From: Schmidtea polychroa
Lineage: Eukaryota
Length of the DNA: 64,000 nucleotides
Direction: 5' to 3'
Assembly (NCBI GenBank): GCA_044892525.1
Contig: CM097885.1
Location: forward strand, 5,520,001-5,584,000
The notes under the pieces are model-generated. The model was not told where the DNA came from. It was given only the letters and a program-made list of their open reading frames with translations, and searched no databases. The position numbers and the translations under genes are program-made. This document shows positions 14,503-48,189 of the stretch, piece after piece (position 1 is the stretch's first letter; the number at the start of each line of letters is the position of its first letter).

Positions 14503-14795
14503 CGCAAATAATGATTAAAATGAAATGTTACAGGGTTTATATACCTTTGACTCATGCCTATCAACCAATCAGATTATAGCATGTCTTTGTTTAAATTGCA
14601 TGTCATTTGCATTAATGTTGCATTAATGTTTTTATTATTATAAATATTGTTTTTATTATTATTATTTCTAATATTGTTATTACTATTATTATTTATATTT
14701 TTAATATTATTACTATTATTACTATTTCTATTACTATTATCATTTCTATTTCTATTATTTCGATTTACAAAAACAAAACAATTCACCATAAAAAT

Positions 14796-15202
14796 TTATT
14801 TTGATACAATCTGACTCGAGTGGTGATTTCTCAGAGTCTTCACCAAACACCATTCAACATATTGTTGATAACGGAAATTGCAGCAGCTACATCCGAAAAT
14901 GCAAGGAGCCTCTGGTTTCATTTCTTTCATCACCCTTCCTATCTTGACATCCCATAGAAAGGTGTTTATTATATCGAATATCCAGATTCGTGTTTGGTTG
15001 TATACCAAATCCGGAATGATAGCTGGATCTCTATCTTGTAGAATTTCATTTAATTCTGGATAATAGAAGCATAATCTTTGCAGGATAATTGATTGATATT
15101 CATCTGTAAAAATATATATTAATGTAATAATAAAAATTTGAAATTACCATAATTTGCATGCTCTTTCATTGAGGTGATTGCGGAACTTTGTATGTTGTAC
15201 AT
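14796..15202 (-). CDS. Spliced Cys-rich Polinton accessory protein, 120 aa, unknown function
   Basis: ATG at 15202; 44-nt GT-AG intron 15147-15104 joins MYNIQSSAITSMKEHANY to DEYQSIILQRLCF...PCIFGCSCCNF...IVSK*. Confidence 0.7.
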
Positions 15203-15277
15203 TTTTGTTGAATAAATGATTTCAAAACAGAAAACATATTGTTTAAAACAATCATTAACCAATTAGAAATTAACCAA

Positions 15278-15715
15278 TTAGAAATTGACCAATGAAATTA
15301 TCTCATTTCGAACATTGTCAACAAATTCCCTATACTCCAAATTTCTCAACCCCAGCATGACAACCTTTCCACTAGCAAACACGTTGACATATATAGGGTT
15401 ATATTTTATTAGTCTTAGTGCGGGAAAAAATTCCGGTTCAAACATACAATCACATTTTTTCGACATGTTATATAGATTGATACTATGTCCCATATCCATA
15501 GTAATGGTAATTGATTGGATTTTAATATTATTTATTCGATATTGTAATTTATTAATATCCAAGGGTTTCTTACATCCCATGATTCTACATTTACCAGTCT
15601 TGAAAAATATTATCGGGTATTTCCCGCTTCTATCGATAATTTGCTGAGGTTTCCCTGGTGGGAACCTCATATTCGATACATCAAAATTTCCTCGATAATT
15701 TATATTTGCTAACAT
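15278..15715 (-). CDS. TATA-binding-protein (TBP) fold homologue, 145 aa
   Basis: Two TBP repeats: IIFFKTGKCRIMGCK and MFEPEFFPALRLIKYNPIYVNVFASGKVVMLG (compare TBP YEPELFPGL...LIFVSGKVVLTG). Confidence 0.85.
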   Translation of the reverse strand: MLANINYRGNFDVSNMRFPPGKPQQIIDRSGKYPIIFFKTGKCRIMGCKKPLDINKLQYRINNIKIQSITITMDMGHSINLYNMSKKCDCMFEPEFFPALRLIKYNPIYVNVFASGKVVMLGLRNLEYREFVDNVRNEIISLVNF

Positions 15716-15814
15716 TATTAAATCATTTATGAAAGTTAGTCTTTATATACAAATTGATCACGAGTTCATTAAATCATCGAATATAAACAAATACACATTT
15801 ATAAAATTTTTGAA
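15716..15814. promoter_or_regulatory. Candidate divergent promoter between the TBP-like gene and the structural-gene block
   Basis: ~100-bp head-to-head gap; TATA-like boxes on both strands (CTTTATATAC; ATATAAA; TTTATAAAA). Confidence 0.45.
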
Positions 15815-16441
15815 ATGGAATTAAGAAATGATGCAGTATACCAAATCGTTGGTCCGAGTGGTAGTGGAAAAACATTATTTGTTTGTAAATTACTAAAATC
15901 AAATTTATTCAAATCAAAATTCAACAGGATTTATTGGCATAGGGGTGCTGATGAAGAACATGGATTAACTCAATCAAGTTTCTGTAAATTAAAAAACATG
16001 AAAATAGTAAAGGGATTCGATAAAAACTGGTCCAGCCGATTAAAGAAAGGTGATGTCATTATTATCGATGATTTGTATCAAGAAGATAATAAAGAAAAAG
16101 ATTTTAATAATTTATTTACTAAAATCAGCAGACATGTTGGTGTAACAGTAATTTTCATTACACAAAATCTATTTCATCAAGGTGGTGCACATCGAACACG
16201 TAATTTAAATGTACAATATTTAGTTATTTTCAAGAATCCTAGAGATGCAACAGTGATTGATTTTCTTGCACGTCAAGCATACCCTAACAATCGTAATTTT
16301 CTTATCAGTGCATTTCAAGATGCTACAAAATTACCCCATGGATATATATTTCTTGATTTCACACAACAATGTCCCGATGATTTACGAGTAAAAACAGATA
16401 TTTTCAACCCAAAAGATGTCATGGTTTATAAACAAACTTGA
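15815..16441 (+). CDS. A32-like (FtsK/HerA) DNA packaging ATPase
   Basis: Walker A IVGPSGSGKT, Walker B VIIIDD, SRHVGVTVIFITQN motif. Confidence 0.92.
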   Translation: MELRNDAVYQIVGPSGSGKTLFVCKLLKSNLFKSKFNRIYWHRGADEEHGLTQSSFCKLKNMKIVKGFDKNWSSRLKKGDVIIIDDLYQEDNKEKDFNNLFTKISRHVGVTVIFITQNLFHQGGAHRTRNLNVQYLVIFKNPRDATVIDFLARQAYPNNRNFLISAFQDATKLPHGYIFLDFTQQCPDDLRVKTDIFNPKDVMVYKQT

Positions 16442-16456
16442 AAACCTCTATGAATA

Positions 16457-17005
16457 ATGATGTTTTTAAAAGCAAGGGTGAAAAATATTAGGAAATTAAG
16501 AAAAAGTATTAAAAAGAGTATTAAAGTTCCAACAGTTCCACCAACAACTAGTTATACACCATCTAAAAAACTTGTTACTGAAAATTTTTCTGCAATGAAT
16601 CTTATTTCGAAAAATCCTAAACCTAAACGTAAATCCAGTAAACGTAAAACCCGTAAACGTAAAATCAGTAAAAAAGTAGTTAAAAATCATCGCAGTTTTC
16701 CATTTTTTAATGCATTGTTAAAGGCCCCGAGTATGAAAAGAATGAATATATTGCAATCATTCCCAAATTTTGTTGTCGATGATTTACTCAATATTATACT
16801 TAAAGTAGTCAAAGGCAAAATTAAAATCAGTAAATCAAAAAAGCATTTATTGAGCAAACATAGGAAACCATTGTTATCTTTAGTAAATAATAAAAATCGT
16901 AAGCAAATGAGGAAAATTATATATAAACAACAAGGTGGATTTATTGGTTCATTGATACCTCTGGCATTATCATTATTAGGTGGAGTTGTAGGAAATCAAT
17001 CATAA
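16457..17005 (+). CDS. Basic core/DNA-condensing-like virion protein with adenain-type Gly-Gly sites
   Basis: Very K/R-rich; C-terminal QQGG|FIGSLIPLALSLLGG amphipathic segment of the kind seen in Polinton core proteins. Confidence 0.7.
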   Translation: MMFLKARVKNIRKLRKSIKKSIKVPTVPPTTSYTPSKKLVTENFSAMNLISKNPKPKRKSSKRKTRKRKISKKVVKNHRSFPFFNALLKAPSMKRMNILQSFPNFVVDDLLNIILKVVKGKIKISKSKKHLLSKHRKPLLSLVNNKNRKQMRKIIYKQQGGFIGSLIPLALSLLGGVVGNQS

Positions 17006-17066
17006 ACAATGGGTGCTAATCCTTCATTGCCCGACATTAAATTTAATTTTAAATCTTCTTGCTGGA

Positions 17067-18191
<1,125 letters not shown>

Positions 18192-19196
18192 ATTTTTATA
18201 CTATTTTACCGAGCAATAGTTGCCCATTAATTCATCCAGACAATCAAGCCAGTAAATTTATGGTCAATCTCCAGAATCCGATTTCTTTAAATGGTGACTG
18301 GGAAGTTGCACTGCAAGATTTTACATTCGTGTACAACACATTCCCATTTTATAGTCAATGTAAGATTGATTTCAAAAGGAATATTATGAAAACATGTAGC
18401 GGTATCTTTATTATTAGTAATTATGATAAAACATATCATATTCCGAACCAAATATTAGATTCGCATTGCTATATATTTAACAAGGATGGATTATATATCA
18501 GTTGTGATTTTAAACCATTTACAATAACATTCGAAACTATTGAAGATGCCAAACGAATGGGTTGCAATAAGTTGAAAAATATTGTTACGGAGACGGAGTA
18601 TTTATTACGTTTTAATCTATTTGAAGCAAACAGTATAGTGAAAGAAGAAATCAAAATATCTCTGTCGTATAATGATGAAGTTGAAGAATCATTTACCTTT
18701 TCTGATGAATTATATTTTGATAAACTTGATGTATTACTTAAATATTTGAAGTTCAATTGTTCACACATATTTAAAAATTTGGAAATTGTGAAAGACTTGA
18801 TGTTTACCTTCAGTTTGAATGATGATATTTGCGAAGTTACATTTGATAAAAATTTGGCAAATTCACTTGGATTAGATAAGCAAAAATATCGAGAAAAATC
18901 GACTGGTATACGCAAACCAAGAATACTAGAACATCATCAACAAATGTTCATATATACTAACATTATCGAACCCATAATTGTTGGTGATTCCAGTGTTCCT
19001 CTTTTGAAATCGGTATGGATTGGCAAATATGAACATGATGAAGTTGTCAATATAAATATCGATAATCCCATGTATTTACCAATAGCAAGTTCATGTATAA
19101 ACAATATAGAAATAAATATTCGTGATGATAGTGGAAAACTTATAAACTTTCCAAAAGGTTCAAAAACTCATTTGACATTACATTTTCGTAAAGTAG

Positions 19197-19613
19197 ATGG
19201 CAAATTCTGATATTATTAGTATGTATAGTGGTAGCCAATCTGGCGGTGAATTACCATATTTTATTGGTAAACAGTACGGATCGGGATGGTTGAGAACAAT
19301 TGGTAGATTTGCATTGCCTATTCTTAAACGTATTGGTAGTTTTGGTATGAAAACTGCAAAAGATGTTATTATGAATGAACAGAAAATATTACCATCTCTA
19401 AAAACAAATGCTTTAGCAGAATTAGGGAAAGTTTTACCAGGGGTTGCAGGTATGTTTCAAAAAGATACGCCTCCAGCTCCAGCTCCAAAACGTAAAAGAC
19501 ATGGAATATCACGTATAAACAAACGAATGAAAGGACATGGAACTATATTTGCAAATAGATTTGTGGTAAATCTGAATTATGTATATTTGATAGACCGTCG
19601 CCCCAGGCTGTAA
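19197..19613 (+). CDS. Small Polinton virion protein with QxGG/QxGxG sites and an amphipathic helix
   Basis: SQSGGELPYF...KQYGSGWLRTIGRFALPILKRIG; basic tail; lies between mCP and MCP. Confidence 0.7.
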   Translation: MANSDIISMYSGSQSGGELPYFIGKQYGSGWLRTIGRFALPILKRIGSFGMKTAKDVIMNEQKILPSLKTNALAELGKVLPGVAGMFQKDTPPAPAPKRKRHGISRINKRMKGHGTIFANRFVVNLNYVYLIDRRPRL

Positions 19614-20776
19614 TAGAATTTGGGGCATTTGAGGAAGTTTTTCCTATGAATTCAATTACCGATAGTAGAAATGATATAGAGTTTTATATTAATGGTTCGC
19701 AAACCGAATATTTAGATTTGAACGATACTTTATTGACTGTTCAGATTAAGGTTGTAGATAAAGATAGAAAAGTTTTGGATGCCAATGCAGATGTAATACC
19801 GAACAATTTCCTGTTTCATACTCTTTTTAAAGATGCAGTGTTGGGATTTAATAATATCAAGATTGAGGGCGGAAATAATACATTCATTCACAAGGCATTA
19901 ATAGAAACTATTTTAAATTACAATTCTGATACTAAAAATACATGTCTTACTCCTATGGGTTATGGTAGTGATGATGAAAGAAAAAAGTGGGTAAAAGGCT
20001 CAAAGGTTTTCACCATGTGCTCATCATTACAACTTGATTTTATGGATCAACCGAAATATTTACTACCGGGAGTTAATGTACATATTAGACTGAAAAGGTC
20101 TGATTCTGCATTATCTCTTACTAGTGCAACTGGTGCACCAATATGTCAATTAGTTGATGCAAAATTATTGGTGAGAAGAGTACGAGTAGACCCCTCAGTA
20201 TTAGCAGGTCATCAATTGGGTCTTAATTCAAAACATGCAATTTATCCATTAAAAACAAAGGAAATTGTACAATTTGCTATTGCTAAAGGTGCTTCATCTT
20301 TCTATAAAGAACAAATATTTGGTGACCGAAGAATGCCTAATTTTATTCTGATAACATTTCAAAGTGAAGCACAATATAATGGATCATATACTGCGTCCAG
20401 CTCAATTTTCAAAAACTTTGGTGTTACATCATTGACTTTGTCGAAAAATACTGATTATAGAGAAACATATATTCAAGATTTCGAGAATGACAATTACTGT
20501 GCGACATATATGCAGAGTATTGTTAGAAATCTGGGTTATTTAGATAAATTGTTGAATTGCGGAATAACTCTAGAAGATTTTAAAAGCAAATACCCATTTT
20601 TTACATTTGTTTTAGCCCCTGATTTTGATTTAAATCAAAGTCAATTACCTCAAAATGGAAATTTACGACTGGATATAAAGTTTGCAAAAGCTATTACTGA
20701 GCCAGTACATGTTATAATATATGGAGTATTTGAAAATGAAGTTCAAATTACTGCAAATAGAACAGTGTTGGTATAA
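19568..20776 (+). CDS. Major capsid protein (double jelly roll)
   Basis: In-frame KSELCIFDRPSPQAVIE upstream of the first ATG (19646); IEFYINGSQTEYLDLNDTLL, QPKYLLPGVNVHIRLKR, GNLRLDIKFAKA motifs. Confidence 0.9.
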   Translation, partial: KSELCIFDRPSPQAVIEFGAFEEVFPMNSITDSRNDIEFYINGSQTEYLDLNDTLLTVQIKVVDKDRKVLDANADVIPNNFLFHTLFKDAVLGFNNIKIEGGNNTFIHKALIETILNYNSDTKNTCLTPMGYGSDDERKKWVKGSKVFTMCSSLQLDFMDQPKYLLPGVNVHIRLKRSDSALSLTSATGAPICQLVDAKLLVRRVRVDPSVLAGHQLGLNSKHAIYPLKTKEIVQFAIAKGASSFYKEQIFGDRRMPNFILITFQSEAQYNGSYTASSSIFKNFGVTSLTLSKNTDYRETYIQDFENDNYCATYMQSIVRNLGYLDKLLNCGITLEDFKSKYPFFTFVLAPDFDLNQSQLPQNGNLRLDIKFAKAITEPVHVIIYGVFENEVQITANRTVLV

Positions 20777-20855
20777 ATGTATACAGAAACACAAAAAGTT
20801 GTCATGGAGTAAGTAGTTTTTTATACTCTGGATTTATTTAAGTAGTTCTGTTCAG

Positions 20856-21188
20856 GTCAATAAAATCGGAAAACAGATATTGGGAAATGAATTTGTTGGA
20901 GTTTTTCCTCTTGATAAAATTCCATATTTGAGCAATAATCAAGCAATAATCGTCAATACTCAATCGTCTCATCTTGGTGGAGAACATTGGATAGCTATAT
21001 ATATGAAACCTGGTAATATATTCGTGTTCGATCCTATGGGTTTTTATTACCCAGCTTTGTTGATATCAAAACTACAAACAATGGGAAAACCTATTGTGTA
21101 TAATAAAACTATGTTTCAAAATCCTCTGACTCAAACATGTGGTCAACATTGTTTAGCTTGGTTATTGTACAAAAAATTTGATGTTTAA
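20856..21188 (+). CDS. Adenain-like cysteine maturation protease
   Basis: FVGVFPLD, IIVNT...GEHW (His), FDPMG (Asp), Q...TCGQHC (Gln, Cys); start probably near ATG 20777 but that junction is unresolved. Confidence 0.88.
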   Translation, partial: VNKIGKQILGNEFVGVFPLDKIPYLSNNQAIIVNTQSSHLGGEHWIAIYMKPGNIFVFDPMGFYYPALLISKLQTMGKPIVYNKTMFQNPLTQTCGQHCLAWLLYKKFDV

Positions 21189-21244
21189 TAAAATTTGATA
21201 TTTAATAAATGTATCCTTTGTTCTTGTGATTATTATTATTATTA

Positions 21245-21315
<71 letters not shown>

Positions 21316-22473
21316 ATTATTTAGAAAAATATTATTATTTTTAATTAATTTTATTATTATTCACATAAATATTATTAATTCAACATAAAGACCACCTATG
21401 CCTGAAGCATGCACAGTGCAAGTTAACAAAGGCATGACTAACAAAGGCAGTCACATGTAATTTCTGAGTGATTTACATTACATACATGCATGCGTGTGAT
21501 TGGTTGAGAGAGTAAAATATTCAGTGTCTATGTGTGTGTGCCTAAACTCTCATTGGCTGGGACAGGAAAATATTCATTCTCTTTATAAACATTGACAAAT
21601 CTCAAATTTGTCACAATTATTTTAAAATTTTTCAACAACAAACCATTTAAAATTTTTCAACAACAAACCAAAATGTCGAACAATATTTTTCGAGGACTTT
21701 TGTCAACTGGTAAATTATTATTTTTATTATTATTCTATTTTTATTTATTTTTTATTTAGATTCTTTTGACTGGTTAGAAGTAACCGAGGATGAGCCGTTA
21801 TTGAATGTGGATCGAATTTTTGGTAAATTTATTATTCTCATTTTTATGAAATTAATTTGTTTTTTAGAACCGATTACAATTAGCGACGACGATGATGTCG
21901 TGTTTATTGGGCAAACTGATGCCCCTAATGTAAGAGAAAATGATGCTGAAAGTAAATTTATTTTATATTTTGTATATTATTTTTAAAAAATTAAACAATT
22001 TTCGTAATCACTTTTTAAACATTTGCATAAAAATTTTTGTAATGTTATTAAATGTTAATTAATTATGATGATAAGAAGAATATGATGAAAAATGATGATA
22101 TGAAGAAAAATGAAGATATGAAGAAAATGATGATATGACGAATAAGATGATATGAAGAAAATGATGACGAAAATAAAAATGATTATGAAAATGCCGAAAA
22201 TAATGAAAATAACAAAAATTATGATGATGAAAATATGATGAAAATATGACGAAAATTATGAAAATTATGAAAATATGAAGAAAATGATGAAAATATGACG
22301 AAAATGAAGAAAATGATGAAAATGACGAAAATGACGAAAATTATGAAATTATTATTAAGAAAATACTACGTTTCTGAAAAATAATGAAATTATTATACAA
22401 TGTTAAAAAGTGATTACGAAACTATAGTTATAAATATTCCTTGTAGTTTTCAATGTGCATCTACAATAGTTAA

Positions 22474-22579
<106 letters not shown>

Positions 22580-23069
22580 TTTTACATCATTTAATGTAGT
22601 CTGCAGTGAGCATGCAGCTACATATATCTCTAATAATAATATTTTACATCATTTAATGTAGTCTGCAGTGAGCATGCAGCTACATATATCTCTAATAATA
22701 ATAATAATGATGATGATAATAATAATAATAACCTTTTATTCTACATTATCTTATAATAATATACTAAATTTTATTAATTGTTAATAATTAATCCGTTTTA
22801 TAATTATTATATAATAAAAACGGATTAACTACTAAAAATTGGTAATAAATATTTAGAAAAATATTCAAATAATATTTAAGGATTTATCATTATTAGGTAA
22901 ATTATATCCACGATACTGCCAGGCTTCTGGGCATTCAAAATCTTGTCATAAGACAATGAAAAAATATTATGGCCATAAATTCTATGGACTCAAATACTAT
23001 TTATGTCCATCATGCCAGACTTCCCAACATATAAAATATACTGATTTTTACAAAACCCATAGTAACCAT

Positions 23070-23468
23070 CAGTGCTCGAAGTGAGGCGGGATAGCCGGGA
23101 TATTATCCCGGCATTGATTATGTAGGCGGAATTGCATCCCGGCACTTCATTTCATATAATCTATAGGTTTATCCCGGTACTTATTTCATTTTATAGGCAC
23201 ACAAATACTGCAATTAAGGTCACACATAGTACATCCATATATGTATGTATATATATATTCTTTATTCTCTATTCTCTATTCAATTAAGAATTTCCCAAGC
23301 AGCAGTAATGGATAGGTAGGTATATTCTGAAACTTATGATTAAATGGGTGGACACCCTCCCCAAAGTTTTGCAACACCCCCAACTGAAAATTTCTGCATA
23401 AAAGCCTGGAATCCCGGGTGCCACAGCATGCCTATCCCGGCACATATTTTGTTCCACTTCGAGCACTG
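23070..23468. mobile_element. hAT MITE, 399 bp
   Basis: Perfect 14-bp TIR CAGTGCTCGAAGTG / CACTTCGAGCACTG; 8-bp TSD GTAACCAT. Confidence 0.92.
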
Positions 23469-23519
23469 GTAACCATCTTAATCAGTTTTTTATAAAGAAA
23501 CTTACTCTCTTTAAACGGA

Positions 23520-23890
23520 TAAATAAAAATGCAAATAAAAATGTAAATAATGATGCGATTAGCGCAGAACATAAAAATTTAAATAAAACTGTAAATAAAA
23601 ATGTAAATAAAAATGCAAATAAAAATATAAAAAATGATGCGATTAGCGCAAAACATAAAAATTTAAATAAAACTGTAAATAAAACTGTAAATAATGATGC
23701 GATTAGTGCAGAACATAAAACTGTAAATAAAAATGTAAATAAAACTGTAAATAATGATGCGATTAGCGCAGAACATAAAACTGTAAATAAAAATGTAAAT
23801 AAAACTGTAAATAATGATGCGATTAGCGCAGAACATATAATTAAAAATGTAAATAATAATCTAAATAAAAATGTAAATAAAAATGTCAAT
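23520..23890 (+). repeat. Coding minisatellite: 12-bp units inside ~60-bp units (NDAISAEHKTVNKNVNKTVN x5)
   Basis: Five ATGATGCGATTAG(C/T)GCA cores separated by AAATAAAA(C/A)TGT units; all keep the reading frame. Confidence 0.85.
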
Positions 23891-24058
23891 AATAAACGGC
23901 CTGCTGTTATTCAAGATTCTTGTATACCATCTAAAGTTATTAAAGTTAATGGTGGTGATGAAATAAATATTCAAATTAATAAGCCAATAGGTGGGTCAAT
24001 ACACGGTTCAGTCGATATAGATGACGAACCTAATAATAATTATATATCATTTAACAAG

Positions 24059-24592
24059 GTCTTGGGAAAATGTTAATAACTTTGTCAATATTAAAGATGG
24101 TGATGACAACAATAGTTCATTTGAAAGGTCTTGCACCAAGCTTCAAAATAAGCTATCGATCGATGAAATAAGTTGATGGGAACGATAACTTTTGGCAGGC
24201 CAAATAGTAGGTCACCGCGAGTACAAAGACATTAGAAATAATAATATTTTTAAAAATAATAATAATAAATTTATATCATTGATGAGTCATATGTCTTTGT
24301 TCTAAAGTCGACCTTGAATGCTTGATGAGTCATATGTCTTTGTTCTCAAGTCGACCTTGAATGCTTGATGAGTCATATGTCTTTGTTCTCAAGTCGACCT
24401 TGAATGCTTGATGAGTCATATGTCTTTGTTCTCAAGTTGACCTTGAATGCTTGATGAGTCATCAGATGAGTCATATGTCTTTGTTCTCAAGTTGAAAAAA
24501 AAAATTTTTTTAATTTTTCCGGCGGGGGGGTGGGGTAAAAAATGTCTTTGTGCTGGCGGTGACCTGTTTTCGCGGTGACCAATCTATCTACT
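24059..24592. repeat. Right TIR of the Polinton (534 bp) with a 43-bp tandem array
   Basis: Reverse complement of the left TIR; units GATGAGTCATATGTCTTTGTTCTCAAGTCGACCTTGAATGCTT at 24281, 24324, 24367, 24410, partial copies at 24453 and 24465. Confidence 0.9.
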
Positions 24593-25198
24593 TTCTATCT
24601 ATTTTTCCGTGTCAACTTTTAACATTGCTAGATTTCATTTTCTTTTCATAACATAATTAACATAAAATAACATAAATAATATAAAATAACATAAAATAAT
24701 GTAAATAAGAATAGTGCACGCATTACACATTGCAATAATTAATAACGTCCCTGAATTGGGGAGGGGTGTCCGTTACATAAAAATAGGTTTAAAATAAATC
24801 AAAAAACTTTTTTTTGAAAATATGTACTCTGTATTTAGATATAAATAAAAAATATAAAACAGAAACAAAATTCTATTTAATTATCTTCGGACACTCGCCA
24901 TGAAGGGACGTTGCTGTTTGATATCGACGGGCTTACTTTCGGTAATCCTGCTTTAAAAAAGGAATTAAGTTTTGTTTGTATTTTTTAAGTACACTAAATG
25001 CGTTAATTCATTTCGAGTAAACAAGTAGAAATGCTGTAGAGTTGCGCGAATCTCCGCCAGCGTGGCTAACAGCAACGTACTGAGTCGAAAACTACGTGTT
25101 ATTATATTAAAGAATCCTTTCAGTTATATCGATGTTTTACTGTATTAGCACTATTTGATTATTATTATTACTATTATTATCATTATCATTATTATTAA

Positions 25199-25459: not shown

Positions 25460-27482
25460 AATAATAGAGAAACGCCAACTCAATAACATCAACATAAACG
25501 CGATATATTTCAATTGTACAACAATCTTCGTCAGGCCGCAATCTGGATAATCAATAATAAGACATAAAATATGCAATATCTAAACAAATTAACTAATAAT
25601 AATCATCTCCAAACTGTATCAAAAATTTTAAAAAAAAAATATTTCAAAAAAAACATTTTAAAAAACCAAACCATATTTTACATAACCCACATACATATTA
25701 TTTTAAAATTAAATTTTAATTTAATCACATTTAACATTCAACATAAAATTAACAAATTTTAAAAAAAAATTACATAGTTTACAAAACACAAACATAATTA
25801 TACCACAAACAAGACTCCCAACCTTCATCCTTCAATTACTTAAACACATTCAAAATCTCCGTGGAACGGGCAACTTGATCATTTATTTTTGGATTTAAAT
25901 ATCTAATCAACAATGCCTCACAAGTTACTCGTTCCCAATAATTACTTAAACCTTTTGAAATAATTTTAAAATCAGAGATACCTATTTTTTTACTGACACA
26001 TTTCCTAACATGATTACTAATATTAGTCAATCCTTTTGGTCGACAGTGTTCAAGAACTCGGGTGCAGAGATGACGGGCAGTCTCTCCAATGTATATGGCA
26101 TTACACCCATTACATGAAAATTGATACACAAGCTCAGAACACAAACCAATTGGCGTTGGACATTTACTAGTAAACATACTGCTAACTTTGCAAGAAGTGG
26201 AAACAATCCTGAATTGATCCTTGTCTACATATTTGAGAATTTTATGTTTAAATTCTCTGAAACCCTCCGAATAAGGCAATACTAACACATATTTCGGCTC
26301 CATGCGATTGGATCGATTCTTGTCACTTTCCGAATTTAACATAGTACTTTCCTCAGGATCAATAGGTACCTCAGATTCAGACGTACGCATACCAACGTTA
26401 TCAGATTTAAACATTAACTTATCCACAGTCACTTTTGTCATTTTCTCAAGAAAAGATTTAGAGTAGCCATTTTTAAGTAACAACTCAACCAATACATCAA
26501 TACTTTTTACTGAATTAGCAAACGTGGAGGATAGTGACCAAGCACGAAACACTAATCCTCTCACCATATTCCTTTTATATTTAAACTCACAAAAACTATC
26601 AGGCGTTGTATATAAACCAGTATCCGTCGACTTTCTATATATTTCAGTCTCATAATGTTTCGATTTGCGTTGAATGAGTAAATCTAAAAACGCAATCGAT
26701 GACCCTTTTTCTTCCTCACATGTGAATTTAATATTCTTATGCAAATCATTCATAAAATATAAAAACGGCATTACATGTTCACGACTCTCAAACACCAAAA
26801 AAATATCATCCACATACCGTTTGTACACTAGGTTTAACAAGATGGCATGAAGACATTTTCTTTTCCAAACTAGACATAAAAATAGAAGCCATAGTTGGGG
26901 CTAATGGAGAACCCATAGCAACACCATCCACTTGTTTATACGATTCATTATTAAACAAAAAGTTAACATTCGACGTTGAAAATTCAAGCAATTTGCGAAA
27001 AGCAAATTTATCTACATTCTTATGTTCAGACTCATTATTATTCCACATTTCACAACATAAATCAATCGTTTCCGCCAATGGAACATTAGTAAAAAGACTA
27101 CACACATCAAACGAAACCATCACTTCATCATCAGAACTTTTCTTCAGTGCAGCAATGAATGAAGCAAATTCAAAGCTATCCTTACATTCGAACTCAGACA
27201 CCATTAACGGTTTTAATAACCCATCCAAAAATTTGGCAATTTTATATTGAGCGGTTCCTACCATCGATGTACTTTTGGAAGACCATAAAGCTTTGCGGGT
27301 TGAGATCCTTTCGGTTTTAGGAATTTCACCAAATCTATATCAATATTTTTATCATCCGACAATTTGTTTAACATTTTTATCAAAGTTAGTTCATCTTTCA
27401 GAGGAGGCAACTTCCCATTTTTTCGACAACTACCATCTTTAACAAACTGTGGAGATGACAAAACATCGTTCAATTTATTCAC
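25460..27482 (-). mobile_element. Penelope-like retroelement (RT + GIY-YIG), 5'-truncated and frameshifted
   Basis: LYGLPKVH, FDVCSLFTNVP, GVAMGSPLAP, YKRYVDDIF, LVYQFSCNGCNAIYIGETAR. Confidence 0.92.
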
Positions 27483-29168
27483 ATGATGAAGTGATGGTTT
27501 CGTTTGATGTGTGTAGTCTTTTTACTAATGTTCCATTGGCGGAAACGATTGATTTATGTTGTGAAATGTGGAATAATAATGAGTCTGAACATAAGAATGT
27601 GGATAAAATTGCTTTTCGCAAATTGCTTGAATTTTCAACGTCGAATGTTAACTTTTTGTTTAATAATGAATCGTATAAACAAGTGGATGGTGTTGCTATG
27701 GGTTCTCCATTAGCCCCAACTATGGCTTCTATTTTTATGTCTAGTTTGGAAAAGAAAATGTCTTCATGCCATCTTGTTAAACCTAGTGTACAAACGGTAT
27801 GTGGATGATATTTTTTTGGTGTTTGAGAGTCGTGAACATGTAATGCCGTTTTTATATTTTATGAATGATTTGCATAAGAATATTAAATTCACATGTGAGG
27901 AAGAAAAAGGGTCATCGATTGCGTTTTTAGATTTACTCATTCAACGCAAATCGAAACATTATGAGACTGAAATATATAGAAAGTCGACGGATACTGGTTT
28001 ATATACAACGCCTGATAGTTTTTGTGAGTTTAAATATAAAAGGAATATGGTGAGAGGATTAGTGTTTCGTGCTTGGTCACTATCCTCCACGTTTGCTAAT
28101 TCAGTAAAAAGTATTGATGTATTGGTTGAGTTGTTACTTAAAAATGGCTACTCTAAATCTTTTCTTGAGAAAATGACAAAAGTGACTGTGGATAAGTTAA
28201 TGTTTAAATCTGATAACGTTGGTATGCGTACGTCTGAATCTGAGGTACCTATTGATCCTGAGGAAAGTACTATGTTAAATTCGGAAAGTGACAAGAATCG
28301 ATCCAATCGCATGGAGCCGAAATATGTGTTAGTATTGCCTTATTCGGAGGGTTTCAGAGAATTTAAACATAAAATTCTCAAATATGTAGACAAGGATCAA
28401 TTCAGGATTGTTTCCACTTCTTGCAAAGTTAGCAGTATGTTTACTAGTAAATGTCCAACGCCAATTGGTTTGTGTTCTGAGCTTGTGTATCAATTTTCAT
28501 GTAATGGGTGTAATGCCATATACATTGGAGAGACTGCCCGTCATCTCTGCACCCGAGTTCTTGAACACTGTCGACCAAAAGGATTGACTAATATTAGTAA
28601 TCATGTTAGGAAATGTGTCAGTAAAAAAATAGGTATCTCTGATTTTAAAATTATTTCAAAAGGTTTAAGTAATTATTGGGAACGAGTAACTTGTGAGGCA
28701 TTGTTGATTAGATATTTAAATCCAAAAATAAATGATCAAGTTGCCCGTTCCACGGAGATTTTGAATGTGTTTAAGTAATTGAAGGATGAAGGTTGGGAGT
28801 CTTGTTTGTGGTATAATTATGTTTGTGTTTTGTAAACTATGTAATTTTTTTTTAAAATTTGTTAATTTTATGTTGAATGTTAAATGTGATTAAATTAAAA
28901 TTTAATTTTAAAATAATATGTATGTGGGTTATGTAAAATATGGTTTGGTTTTTTAAAATGTTTTTTTTGAAATATTTTTTTTTAAAATATTTTTTTTTTT
29001 AAATTTTTGATACAGTTTGGAGATGATTATTATTAGTTAATTTGTTTAGATATTGCATATTTTATGTCTTATTATTGATTATCCAGATTGCGGCCTGACG
29101 AAGATTGTTGTACAATTGAAATATATCGCGTTTATGTTGAATTTATTGAGTTGGCGTTTCTCTATTAT
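27483..29168 (+). mobile_element. Inverted second arm of the same Penelope element
   Basis: Near-identical reverse complement of 25460-27131, including the same frameshift. Confidence 0.92.
29088..29133 (+). ncRNA. Minimal type I hammerhead motif in the Penelope 3' end (mirror copy ~25498-25542, minus)
   Basis: CTGACGA-A-GATTG ttgta CAATT-GAAA-TATA-TC; stem I is weak. Confidence 0.6.
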
Positions 29169-44559: not shown

Positions 44560-45929
44560 TTTTATTTTAAATTTAAATATTTTTATAAATGTTCAAATAA
44601 TTTTCTCGTCAAAAACAAATATTTACAAATTTCATTTTAAATTTCTTAATAAATATTTTATTTAAAATTTAAATTATTAAAATTAATTTAAAAATAAAAT
44701 AAATAATTAAATCGAATTACTGTTATGTAATTTCTGATGGAATATTTAAACAAACAAACAAAATTATTATAAATATAAAATTTCAATATAATTTTATGCA
44801 AAGTGAAATTGGGAATTATAATTTATTGAAATGCTGGCCCGAATAATTCTTGGTCACAATTATAAATACGATTATTAAAAATATAAATATTATTATTAAA
44901 TTATATATTTTTTAAATAAATTGAAAAACTGTAAATATTTAAATTTCCAATGGAATATTTAAACAAACAAAATAAATATAAAATTTCAATGTATATTTAA
45001 TTCCAAATGAGATATGTAATTCTCGGGGAAAATAAAATAATTATTTAATAACCATGACAATCAGCACTTGTAATGAGATGTGTTTACTGATTATCTCATC
45101 ATTTTTCTTTCTTTCTTTCACTCACCAATTTTCATTATCTAACATATATAAAATAATCATGTTTATAACATAAATAATGACATATTAAATAAATATAAAA
45201 TACTAGGTTTTTCACGGCCGCCTGCGGCGCCATTTATTTCAAAATCTCAAGTACCCGACAAGAAAAGAAATTTTGACGTCTCCTGCATATTACTGATGAG
45301 AGCTAAAAGCTCGAAAGTAGTCTACTATTGGGATTTGCAGTGGGTAACACAAAGATTGTGCTGTTTATAAATATTATAATAAATTATAAATTTAAATAAT
45401 TTTATAAACGTTCAAATAATTTTCTCGTCAAAAACAAATATTTATAAATTTTATTTTAAATTTCTTAATAAATATTTTATTTAAAATTTAAATTATTAAA
45501 ATTAATTTAAAAATAAAATAAATAATTAAATCAAATTATTGTTATGTAATTTCTAGTGAAATTTTAAAACAAACAAAAAAAATTATTAGAAATATAACAT
45601 TTCAATATAATTTTATACCAAGTAAGATTTGGAATTATAATTTATTGAAATGCTGGCCCGAATAATTCTTGATCACAATTATAAATAATATTATAAAAAT
45701 ATTAATATTATTATTAAATTATATATTTTTAAAATAAATTGAAAAAATATTTAAATTTATAATATTAATATTTTTAAAAGAAAACTAAATCGAGATTAAA
45801 TTATTAATAAATATTAATTAATTTAAATTTTATTTTTATAAATTATTTTAAATATGAGAAAATTTGTAAATATTTGTTTGAATATATTTAATTGTTATTT
45901 CATATTTAACATTTGACATCCTCTCAACA
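44560..45929. repeat. ABCF 5' flank, partly tandem-duplicated and inverted relative to 5324-6170
   Basis: GAAATGCTGGCCCGAATAATTCTTG block at ~44830 and ~45650, and reversed at ~5850. Confidence 0.75.
45282..45340 (+). ncRNA. Type I hammerhead ribozyme motif
   Basis: ATATTA-CTGATGA-GAGCT aaa AGCTC-GAAA-GTAG-TC-TACTAT, with outer CTGCA/TGCAG pairing. Confidence 0.65.
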
Positions 45930-47549
45930 ATGCCTCCGAAATTTCTTACAAAATCCGAAAGGAAAACATTGGAAGAAGAACAAGATCAACAATTGATCAG
46001 TTGCATCAAATTGTCCCATAATTTTGTCAACAAAACCGAAGATCAAAGCGCACCAATGAAATCATTTGCACTTGAAAATTTGAACATGACGATCCTTGAA
46101 AAGGTTTTGCTCAAAGATTCAACTATCACAATTGAACATGGGAAAAGATATGGTCTTATTGGTAGCAATGGATCCGGTAAATCTATCCTATTCAAAGCCA
46201 TTCAAATGGGCTTATTCGACTTTCCAAAGGATTACACAATCGGAATTGTCGAAGAAGAATGTCTTGCTGATGGAACTAAAGTTGTCGAATGCTTTGTTGG
46301 TAAAGATGAAGTTGAAGATTTCATGGTGAGATTTGCTGACGTGAAAAGCAGAGCTGTCAACAAGAAGAACAAAGATGTTGAAGTACCAAAACTCGTGAAA
46401 ATATTAGATGGAATGGGATTTACTGCTGAAAAGATGAATGACCACGTTGGTAATTTATCTGGTGGTTGGAGAATGAAGATTAGTTTGGCAACTGTTCTGA
46501 TGGCTGAACCAGATCTTTTACTTTTAGATGAACCTACTAACATGTTGGACGATAGAACAATCAAATGGTTGTCGGGATTTTTGAAAGAATGGAAGACGAA
46601 TTTATTTTTCATTTCTCATGACGGAGGCTTTTTATCTAACGTTGCAACGGATTTGTTATCGATTGAAAATAAAACTGTCGTACATTATGCTTGCAAATAC
46701 TACGAATGGTTGAGGAATCAAGAACTCGACAGAGATAAAGTTAGAAATCAAATCCAAGAACAAAAGGCACAGAAAGCTGAATTGATGGAATACATAAAAA
46801 AGTTCGAAAAGACAAAAAAGAAAGAAGTCGCTGCTAAAAGACAACAAATAAAAAAGATGCCCGTCATTGATGAAAGTATTCTAGAACCGAGAGAAATCTG
46901 GAGATTTCCCGCTTGCTTGAAAATCAAGTGCGCTACAATTGAAACGAATGAAATGGGATTCAGTTTTGGTCCCGCTAAAGAAATATTTAGAAACATCACA
47001 TTACGCGTTCAACCCGATTCTAAAATCTGCATCCTCGGAGACAACGGTTGCGGTAAAACTACTCTATTGAAGATCTTCATGAAAATCCTCAAACCCACCA
47101 ATGGAAACATGTTCTTAAATGATCGAACAAATGTCGGCTACTTCAGCCAGCATTACGTCGACCATTTGGAATTGGACAAATCAGCAATTGAAATTATGCA
47201 GATCCGAGTTCCCAACTGCAAACTCGAAACTTATCAAAGTCATTTGTTGAAATTCGGAATCACAAGTGAAGATTGGAACATTCCCGTCAGATGTTTATCA
47301 TCGGGACAAAAGTCAAGAGTAGCTTTCTCCACTATTTACATGCAGAAGCCTAACTTTTTGATTTTCGATGAACCGACAAGCCATTTGGATAAAGATGGAA
47401 CTGAAGCTTTAGAAGATGCTTTGAGGAAATTCAAAGGAGGAGTTATTGTTGTTACTCACGATGGAAGGATGATGTCAAATGTTTGCAAGGATTTGTGGTA
47501 CATCCAGAACAGAACTGTCAGCGTTGTTGAGGACGGCTGTATGATATAA
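45930..47549 (+). CDS. ABCF3: Second intronless ABCF3-like gene, nested antisense in GPCR intron 1
   Basis: Protein identical to 3704-5323 in the ORF track; at least 7 synonymous nucleotide differences. Confidence 0.85.
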   Translation: MPPKFLTKSERKTLEEEQDQQLISCIKLSHNFVNKTEDQSAPMKSFALENLNMTILEKVLLKDSTITIEHGKRYGLIGSNGSGKSILFKAIQMGLFDFPKDYTIGIVEEECLADGTKVVECFVGKDEVEDFMVRFADVKSRAVNKKNKDVEVPKLVKILDGMGFTAEKMNDHVGNLSGGWRMKISLATVLMAEPDLLLLDEPTNMLDDRTIKWLSGFLKEWKTNLFFISHDGGFLSNVATDLLSIENKTVVHYACKYYEWLRNQELDRDKVRNQIQEQKAQKAELMEYIKKFEKTKKKEVAAKRQQIKKMPVIDESILEPREIWRFPACLKIKCATIETNEMGFSFGPAKEIFRNITLRVQPDSKICILGDNGCGKTTLLKIFMKILKPTNGNMFLNDRTNVGYFSQHYVDHLELDKSAIEIMQIRVPNCKLETYQSHLLKFGITSEDWNIPVRCLSSGQKSRVAFSTIYMQKPNFLIFDEPTSHLDKDGTEALEDALRKFKGGVIVVTHDGRMMSNVCKDLWYIQNRTVSVVEDGCMI

Positions 47550-48189
47550 ATAAATTTTTCCATAAATAATTTTGCTTTTTATTTTATTCCTCAAGATCTA
47601 TGAAGGTGTAAGACTATGTAATGAGTCAATTTCAATAATTTAATGTCTATGAGCTTGATATGATTAATAACGTCAGTTAATCATATTTAAAAATGAAATT
47701 ATTTGCTAATTCTATTTATATAAATCGTTGCTAGGAAACCATGCAAAATCTATATATAAAATTGTATGAGTCATACACAGCCGTCATGTATGGGCTTAGT
47801 TTATAATTTGAATACTAAATAATGTTGCATTATTGGTTATGCTCAATGCGTATGAAATGATTTCGTTGGTGACTTTCATTTAACTGTAAAGCAATATATT
47901 TGCATTTTTATTTACATTTCTAAATTGAATTTGCTATAGACCGAAAGTGTGAACAGTGTTCATTGCAAGCCCATATTCAGATTTGTGGCAGGTAATATAA
48001 AATGTGTATATAATTTAAAACCCCGGATATAATTTATTTGCAGCTAAACTTTGTCTCGTGATTGACTCCTCTTGATTATTTTTTTGAAAATAATTATGTA
48101 AAATTAATATTTATAATTTGAAACTTATAGATTTAATAATTTGTTTATAAATTATCAATATTGTATAGTTATTCATCGCCCGTGTGTGT

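Follow-up and report, generated by a model that had tools for sequence, protein, structure and literature searches.

An intact TBP-fold gene in a Maverick element of Schmidtea polychroa and the altered TATA box that it probably reads

The gene at 15278-15715 on the minus strand of the window (the whole stretch of 64,000 nt analyzed here) is a real and intact gene of a Maverick element, and it encodes a protein with a TATA-binding protein (TBP) fold. The packaging and capsid genes carry an altered TATA box, which is probably read by this viral TBP. The Maverick occupies 11553-24592 (13 kb) and shows the hallmarks of its class: long terminal inverted repeats, a 6-bp target-site duplication, an integrase (below the Pfam cut-off), an A32 ATPase, an adenoviral protease and a capsid gene. 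Its features are listed below.

11547..11552, no strand: left 6-bp target-site duplication, the same hexamer at both ends
11553..11938, plus strand: left terminal inverted repeat with AGTAGAT terminus, 89-92% match to the right end
14092..14502, minus strand: conserved ORF u140, whose homologues adjoin the TBP gene in many loci
14796..15143, minus strand: open frame u115, between TBP and u140, variable among subfamilies
15278..15715, minus strand: viral TBP-like gene, 145 aa (Pfam, AlphaFold model, alignments)
15741..15749, minus strand: canonical TATA box TATATAAAG, 34 nt before the TBP ATG, in 29/29 copies with an ATPase; predicted early promoter
15782..15789, plus strand: TATAAACA box facing the ATPase, its ATAAACA 32 nt before the ATG and present in 29/29 copies; predicted viral-TBP site
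15815..16441, plus strand: A32/FtsK-type packaging ATPase (Pfam Pox_A32, 31.6 bits, above cut-off)
16428..16434, plus strand: ATAAACA in the last ATPase codons (Y-K-Q), 29 nt before the next gene
16457..17005, plus strand: basic 182-aa protein with pX-like C-terminus; ATAAACA at 16923 and 17002
17067..18128, plus strand: retroviral-type integrase (Pfam rve, E 9e-5, below cut-off; 32-57% identity to long matches in other Mavericks)
18137..19210, plus strand: probable penton (minor capsid), from position and homologues; ATAAACA at 19097
19197..19613, plus strand: 138-aa conserved virion-module protein (p138); ATAAACA at 19515, before the capsid gene
19559..20776, plus strand: double jelly-roll major capsid open frame, via homologue L050 (57% identity)
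20817..21188, plus strand: adenovirus-type cysteine protease, open frame without ATG (Pfam Peptidase_C5, 28.1 bits, above cut-off)
22857..23084, plus strand: remnant resembling, by eye, the start of the PolB frame of sister copy L150
24031..24592, minus strand: right terminal inverted repeat with a 43-bp tandem expansion
24593..24598, no strand: right 6-bp target-site duplication

The plus-strand block runs in the order ATPase, pX-like protein, integrase, penton-like protein, 138-aa protein, capsid and protease. The preliminary description called it an ATPase-led structural block; the integrase lies inside it as well. The pX-like label of the 182-aa protein is our assumption from resemblance. 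The modelled L050 capsid has a double jelly-roll fold and matches iridovirus, PBCV-1 and mavirus capsids at E 6e-16. The window copy is damaged: its integrase carries an in-frame (ATT)n expansion, its capsid frame lacks a start codon where relatives start, and a remnant stands where L150, the one sister copy examined, has PolB (PolB queries gave zero matches in the window element). The protease frame is probably spliced from an upstream exon.

Among the non-structural genes, u140 gave zero matches in Pfam or Atlas and has a CCAAT box and TATATAAA upstream. CCAAT boxes stand near TATA-like boxes at 12446, 13384, 14562, 21498 and 21552, an arrangement of host-type early promoters. A small inverted-repeat element with an 8-bp target duplication (13263-13692), presumably a hAT-like MITE, lies inside an acidic Maverick ORF. 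ORF 12509-12820 has a weak Bcl-2 match (E 0.016, below cut-off); Bcl2 homologues have been reported in adintoviruses (sections of PMC8502044).

The TBP-like ORF runs from ATG to stop with zero internal stops, and because only nine open codons, none of them ATG, precede its start, it has no N-terminal extension, as had been described. The proposed TBP fold was borne out: the protein matches Pfam TBP (PF00352) in two stretches with 54.6 bits (cut-off 22.9; E 9.7e-15), and residues 1-145 of its AlphaFold model (pLDDT 94, from a 49-sequence alignment) superpose on residues 66-240 of yeast TBP with Z 12.2 and rmsd 2.7. When this model was searched against the PDB with Foldseek, every match listed at E<=0.001 was a TBP. 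The two repeats of the preliminary description are present but unequal, the second being complete and the first, as modelled, consisting of five strands without helices H1 and H2 (short form); long-form TBPs of the family retain H1 and part of H2 in the first repeat. The viral protein shares with cellular TBPs the two-repeat saddle (Z about 12, rmsd 2.6-2.8 A), but is about 30 residues shorter, is only 20-26% identical and forms a separate clade. Its best PDB sequence matches are archaeal TBPs, but the tree does not join Maverick TBPs to archaeal TBPs. Contigs from three runs guessed to be RNA, and from one of unknown kind, span the TBP gene; they give no start, strand or level and are counted neither way.

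Residues were counted over 155 distinct family sequences of 135-230 aa, anchored on P0122, after removal of 7 cellular-like rows, duplicates and other lengths; the yeast TBP numbering and most residue roles, as applied to this family, are our working assumption. As in cellular TBP, the intercalating phenylalanines F116 (149/155), F190 (154/155) and F207 (154/155) are retained, together with K120, K211 and the EPE(L/I)FP stirrup, whose C-terminal TFIIB glutamates persist at E186 (142/155) and E188 (153/155). The F99 position is P, leaving three of the four intercalating phenylalanines, and V203 is usually C, both columns being gapped in the 155-sequence alignment and mapped from smaller ones. 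Of N69 and N159, which we take to be the central Asn pair of TBP, the former is retained in 134/155 and the latter is S or T in 153/155. The viral TBP therefore lacks three canonical features, namely the fourth Phe, the second Asn and the first-repeat helices. Its DNA face has also acquired new residues that are nearly invariant in the family: V122>R (148/155), T124>M (153/155) and L205>N (154/155), with I194>R (117/155) and V71>N (112/155) as further changes. At two conserved positions, the window copy differs from 28 of 30 sister copies. The altered-specificity mutant TBPm3 has changes at I194, V203 and L205 that shift the reading of base pair 2 (sections of PMC1636458), and Maverick TBPs are altered at the same three positions. 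With one intercalating Phe and one central Asn gone, the protein might bind DNA weakly or not at all; the new invariant DNA-face residues suggest a new target rather than decay.

The gap between the TBP and ATPase genes (15716-15814) had been described as TATA-rich and about 100 bp long, and indeed measures 99 bp with 81% AT, against 71.5% for the element, with TATATAAAG facing TBP and TATAAACA facing the ATPase. The top upstream words are ATAAAC/TATAAACA. When the 70 nt before each gene start were scanned, with near-duplicates removed, ATAAAC was found before the ATPase in 25/25 distinct elements, 31-52 nt from the ATG (ATAAACA in 23/25), as compared with a shuffle mean of 1.1 (maximum 4) and 0/25 on the reverse strand. 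Within the same distance, ATAAACA precedes 7/10 pX-like, 6/10 penton and 6/10 capsid starts, and, with imperfect start calls, 4/16 integrase, 1/6 p138, 0/6 protease and 3/18 u140 starts. It precedes none of 57 TBP genes. These have a canonical TATA in 24/57 (shuffle mean 4.6), with none within 70 nt in the other 33, and TCAYT in 40/57 (shuffle mean 15.2). A separate promoter class is seen in L044, L048, L057, L064, L083, L099 and others: TGTTT(T/A)A stands about 50-60 nt before the TBP ATG in 17/57 and coincides with a canonical TATA in only 1.

Across 14 structural blocks, ATAAACA occurs 84 times in sense and once in antisense; the 91 observed occurrences stand against 15.7 expected (5.8x the Markov expectation), 67/89 boxes lie 20-120 nt from the next start as compared with 20% at random, and the density on PolB strands is 0.30/kb versus 1.3/kb. 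These counts overstate independence, because the loci are related to one another and the same samples supplied several of them. In the window element, ATAAACA occurs seven times in sense between 15783 and 19515 and never in antisense there; the copies at 16923 and 17002 stand ahead of an MG-starting short ORF (17009) and of the integrase, and that at 18118, in the integrase, precedes the next gene. The short ORF (17009-17071, ATAAACA 86 nt upstream) has similar peptides before relatives' integrases, and its product is possibly a myristoylated virion peptide.

The box is also constrained within genes. The ATPase ends in Y-K-Q in 17/20 cases and all 17 spell the box, with about 45% expected per case; box-compatible tripeptides spell it in 51/59 cases near ORF ends versus 8/52 in gene bodies. 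Judged by codon choice, the box is preserved through synonymous sites in the stretches that it shares with coding sequence. Boxes of the form CATAAACA (24/90) carry two off-consensus bases. The changed base of the box is position 7; by TBPm3 geometry, this end would be read by the first repeat, where the protein is altered most.

Two loci with other TBP types serve as contrasts. L157, which sits in a bacterial genome bin to which it was probably misassigned, is a 3352-bp fragment of Polinton-like make-up with an ATPase and a pX-like gene. Its TBP is near-canonical (44% identity to plant-type TBP) and groups with cellular TBPs, which suggests a separate or less-derived capture. In L157, TATAAAAG lies 35 and 43 nt before the ATPase and pX-like genes; TATAAAAR is found at 0/25 in the elements with the R/M/N signature. 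L119 and L121 carry a divergent Maverick TBP subtype without this signature (99/95 branch), and L119, with one sense and one antisense ATAAACA, shows no excess of the box. ATTTAT is a candidate alternative box for L119; of its 9 sense occurrences (0 antisense) only 3 are within 75 nt of a start. The L119 query found no TBP of this type in the window's genome at E<=1e-12. L157 and L119, each a single locus, fit a covariation of TBP type and box.

The signature loci were all retrieved via the TBP gene. Scans of IMG/VR with ATPase and capsid queries, which could have returned TBP-less Mavericks, gave zero Mavericks. In five virophage-like loci, so labelled from gene content, TBP matches are absent and the ATPase is not preceded by ATAAAC (a sixth locus belongs to a phage); they are a weak control, because virophages use giant-virus transcription. 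Among prokaryote genomes the viral TBP had one match only, a Polinton-like contig in a bacterial bin.

The TBP gene is present in at least 150 copies in the genome: all 150 scored, from 4147 candidates and with a bias to intact copies, share 96-100% identity, and internal stops are absent from 149. A second Maverick family in the same genome has a TBP 53-59% identical and the same head-to-head layout (L128-L135). Further Maverick families are suggested by other genome matches, whose open frames measure 156 and 163 aa. Searches for relatives gave 55 at E<=0.001 and 60 clusters at E<=1e-30. Among the best 80 of 125 metagenome loci, 37 have a Maverick core gene matching the window, 13 only u140 and 30 neither; of these last, 24 are shorter than 2.3 kb, and L089 and L094 carry PolB-like and PLA2-like frames. 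The head-to-head order of TBP and ATPase noted in the preliminary description holds here and in 29/30 fetched copies of the window family (the 30th has no ATPase). The order is a trait of this family and not conserved in the clade, because only 4 of 27 metagenome loci with an ATPase have it (gaps 385-1700 bp); in 22 the TBP gene is upstream and co-directional, and in 1 it follows the protease. In a wider metagenome tally it lies 3' of the protease in 9 loci. Accessory genes differ as well, with a PLA2-like gene in long-form elements and a 138-aa gene instead in short-form elements. Accessory genes of L056, L098 and L106 include a ubiquitin-conjugating enzyme, a RING finger, KilA-N, a PLA2-like protein and a C2H2 zinc finger.

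A tree of 37 rows places 23 element TBPs on one side of a 100/99 branch, and 6 host and 8 other TBPs on the opposite side. The tree is unrooted, rests on a short alignment and includes one context-confirmed giant-virus row, L041, which falls outside the Maverick branch. Maverick TBP is, on pairwise dN/dS, under purifying selection (0.08-0.31 in 15/23 pairs; the other 8 are saturated). With about 22-33% local identity to host TBPs, the gene is not a near-identical host copy. The six host TBP-family loci (L122-L127) range from canonical (L122) to very divergent (L123, L125, L127). Mavericks were also considered as carriers of TFIIB, and this was rejected: an intronless TFIIB-like family sits in host clusters, with an integrase fragment beside only 1/8 loci. 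These divergent genes (301-310 aa frames, 13 matches; L039, L040 and L136-L143, G000 C3 38-39 Mb and C1 23.8-24.2 Mb) are possible specialised initiation factors. The genome is AT-rich and belongs to an animal whose TFIIB has flatworm proteins as its best named relatives, which points only weakly to the affinity of the host.

We consider it quite likely that the viral TBP is made early, recognises (T/C)ATAAACA and draws host TFIIB and Pol II to the packaging, integration and virion genes. Host machinery would transcribe the viral TBP early from its canonical TATA promoter. The remodelled saddle would then bind (T/C)ATAAACA about 30-50 nt before the ATPase, integrase and virion starts, a box that would be a poor site for host TBP, and the conserved C-terminal stirrup would recruit host TFIIB and hence Pol II. 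The H1/H2 surface of TBP is used by the regulators TFIIA, TAF1, Mot1, NC2 and Brf1, and loss of these helices in the short form would remove it. Helix loss is unnecessary for specificity, because long forms with H1 and part of H2 use the same box. The predicted outcome is an early-to-late switch for particle assembly. The earlier suggestion that the protein redirects Pol II to late promoters gains real support from a strand- and position-specific ATAAACA that precedes virion genes and is absent before TBP; the competition with host TBP suggested alongside it is possible, with no positive evidence found in its favour.

The box need not belong to the viral protein, because a C at position 7 can be accommodated by host TBP as a Hoogsteen pair (titles of PDB 1QN3; sections of PMC8643651). 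Host TBP also reads TATAAACG at 27% activity in one plant assay (sections of PMC10005294). For both reasons it is possible, although unlikely, that the box is a deliberately weak TATA for host TBP and that the viral protein serves as a decoy or repressor, either tying up TFIIB or blocking promoters of the host or of the early class. Retention of the stirrup while the DNA face loses one Phe and one Asn agrees with a decoy, as does the precedent of TRF2, in which TATA binding was lost together with a Phe; stirrup glutamates touch TFIIB, and TBP kinks DNA at steps 1-2 and 7-8 (sections of PMC10005294). A decoy would, however, need no new invariant DNA-face residues such as the family's R, M and N, the two off-consensus bases of CATAAACA sit poorly with it, and the element with a canonical TBP (L157) uses a canonical box. 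We regard as somewhat less probable again that ATAAACA has another reader, either a host Forkhead protein or an element protein such as u140, and that early promoters, termini or other sites are where the TBP-like protein acts. ATAAACA does fit the Forkhead consensus RTAAAYA, and u140 travels with the TBP gene in many loci. Other Forkhead variants are nevertheless not enriched (GTAAACA 1.5x, ATAAATA 1.0x, GTAAATA 0.9x), the strict orientation and TATA-like distance of the box speak against such a reader, and long-form elements that have the box have no u140 match.

It is improbable to a still greater degree that ATAAACA serves the preceding gene as a signal for polyadenylation or termination. 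The box resembles AATAAA and is often near the end of the previous ORF, but it usually lies within coding sequence, is kept before the ATPase in the head-to-head loci L001, L052, L086, L115 and L130, where there is no upstream co-directional gene, and is preceded by A in only 7/90 cases, with AATAAA itself at 1.2x. To the idea of a host TBP retrocopy that was captured recently and travels along as a passenger, we give next to no weight: the host does have several TBP paralogues, some intronless, but the tree branch and dN/dS refute such an origin, the identity to host TBPs is low and relatives occur in dozens of Maverick contigs.

By analogy, the Maverick TBP would work like the herpesvirus TBP-like proteins (KSHV ORF24, EBV BcRF1) without being a member of that group. 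These pair with a non-canonical late box and use host Pol II (sections of PMC7498053), and the likeness to the beta/gamma-herpesvirus system lies in a viral TBP-like protein together with a non-canonical box at the TATA position, the Maverick box being known from sequence correlation. The herpesvirus proteins are large, bind the Pol II CTD with an N-terminal domain, act with five other viral factors and read TATT (sections of PMC7498053). The Maverick protein, in contrast, is a bare 145-aa core without a CTD-binding domain that keeps the TFIIB stirrup, and its box is ATAAAC/TATAAACA; structural matches to BcRF1 and U58 are weak only. Nucleocytoviricota TBP-like proteins have the same fold (BFVD matches at E 1e-7 to 1e-3). 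They serve a virus-encoded polymerase, and no virus-encoded RNA polymerase was seen in the Mavericks here. Adintoviruses and MELD viruses (Starrett et al., 2021; sections of PMC8502044) are the same element class with the same virion module. In the sections covered, TBP is a legend label for MELD-virus maps in the non-animal section, the readable Fig. S2 animal-map text has no TBP label, and no family, residues or box are described; the gene so labelled, or the "Adintoc" group, may be the Maverick TBP family. This label was the only mention of a Polinton/Maverick TBP or late-promoter box found in the literature covered, in which subscription journals are largely missing and to which unseen figure and slide supplements could add; a further match, PMC12220804, proved spurious. 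A viral TBP with its own late box is a known kind of system, found for Mavericks in that literature only as a label.

For the broad clade of animal Mavericks we put at about even chances a self-encoded early-to-late cascade in which a minimal TBP and its box co-evolved and TBP was captured more than once. The same reading would pair canonical TBP with TATAAAAG, the R/M/N type with (T/C)ATAAACA and some third TBP type with a different box. If true, the protein would rank as the smallest natural TBP with altered specificity, and its regulation would be direct evidence of a timed, productive virus cycle for these "transposons". It touches on whether animal Mavericks/Polintons are real viruses, and on the way in which capsid production is timed by a genome of 15-20 kb that lacks an RNA polymerase of its own. 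Here a dedicated TBP and the box that matches it would supply a mechanism that is concrete and can be tested, and would mark late genes by sequence in elements still unannotated. To TBP research it offers a natural variant changed at the three TBPm3 residues and with two helices shed. Leaky expression of the viral TBP could bear on host TFIIB-dependent transcription, because its copies outnumber the handful of host TBP genes found.

Elsewhere in the window, an intronless 539-aa ORF, ABC-F ATPase-like by eye, occurs at 3673-5521 and 45732-47580 in two inverted copies that are 99% identical, and this gene may be mobile. The region 25621-28993 is a perfect 1.5-kb palindrome of an RT/GIY-YIG element, Penelope-like by eye.
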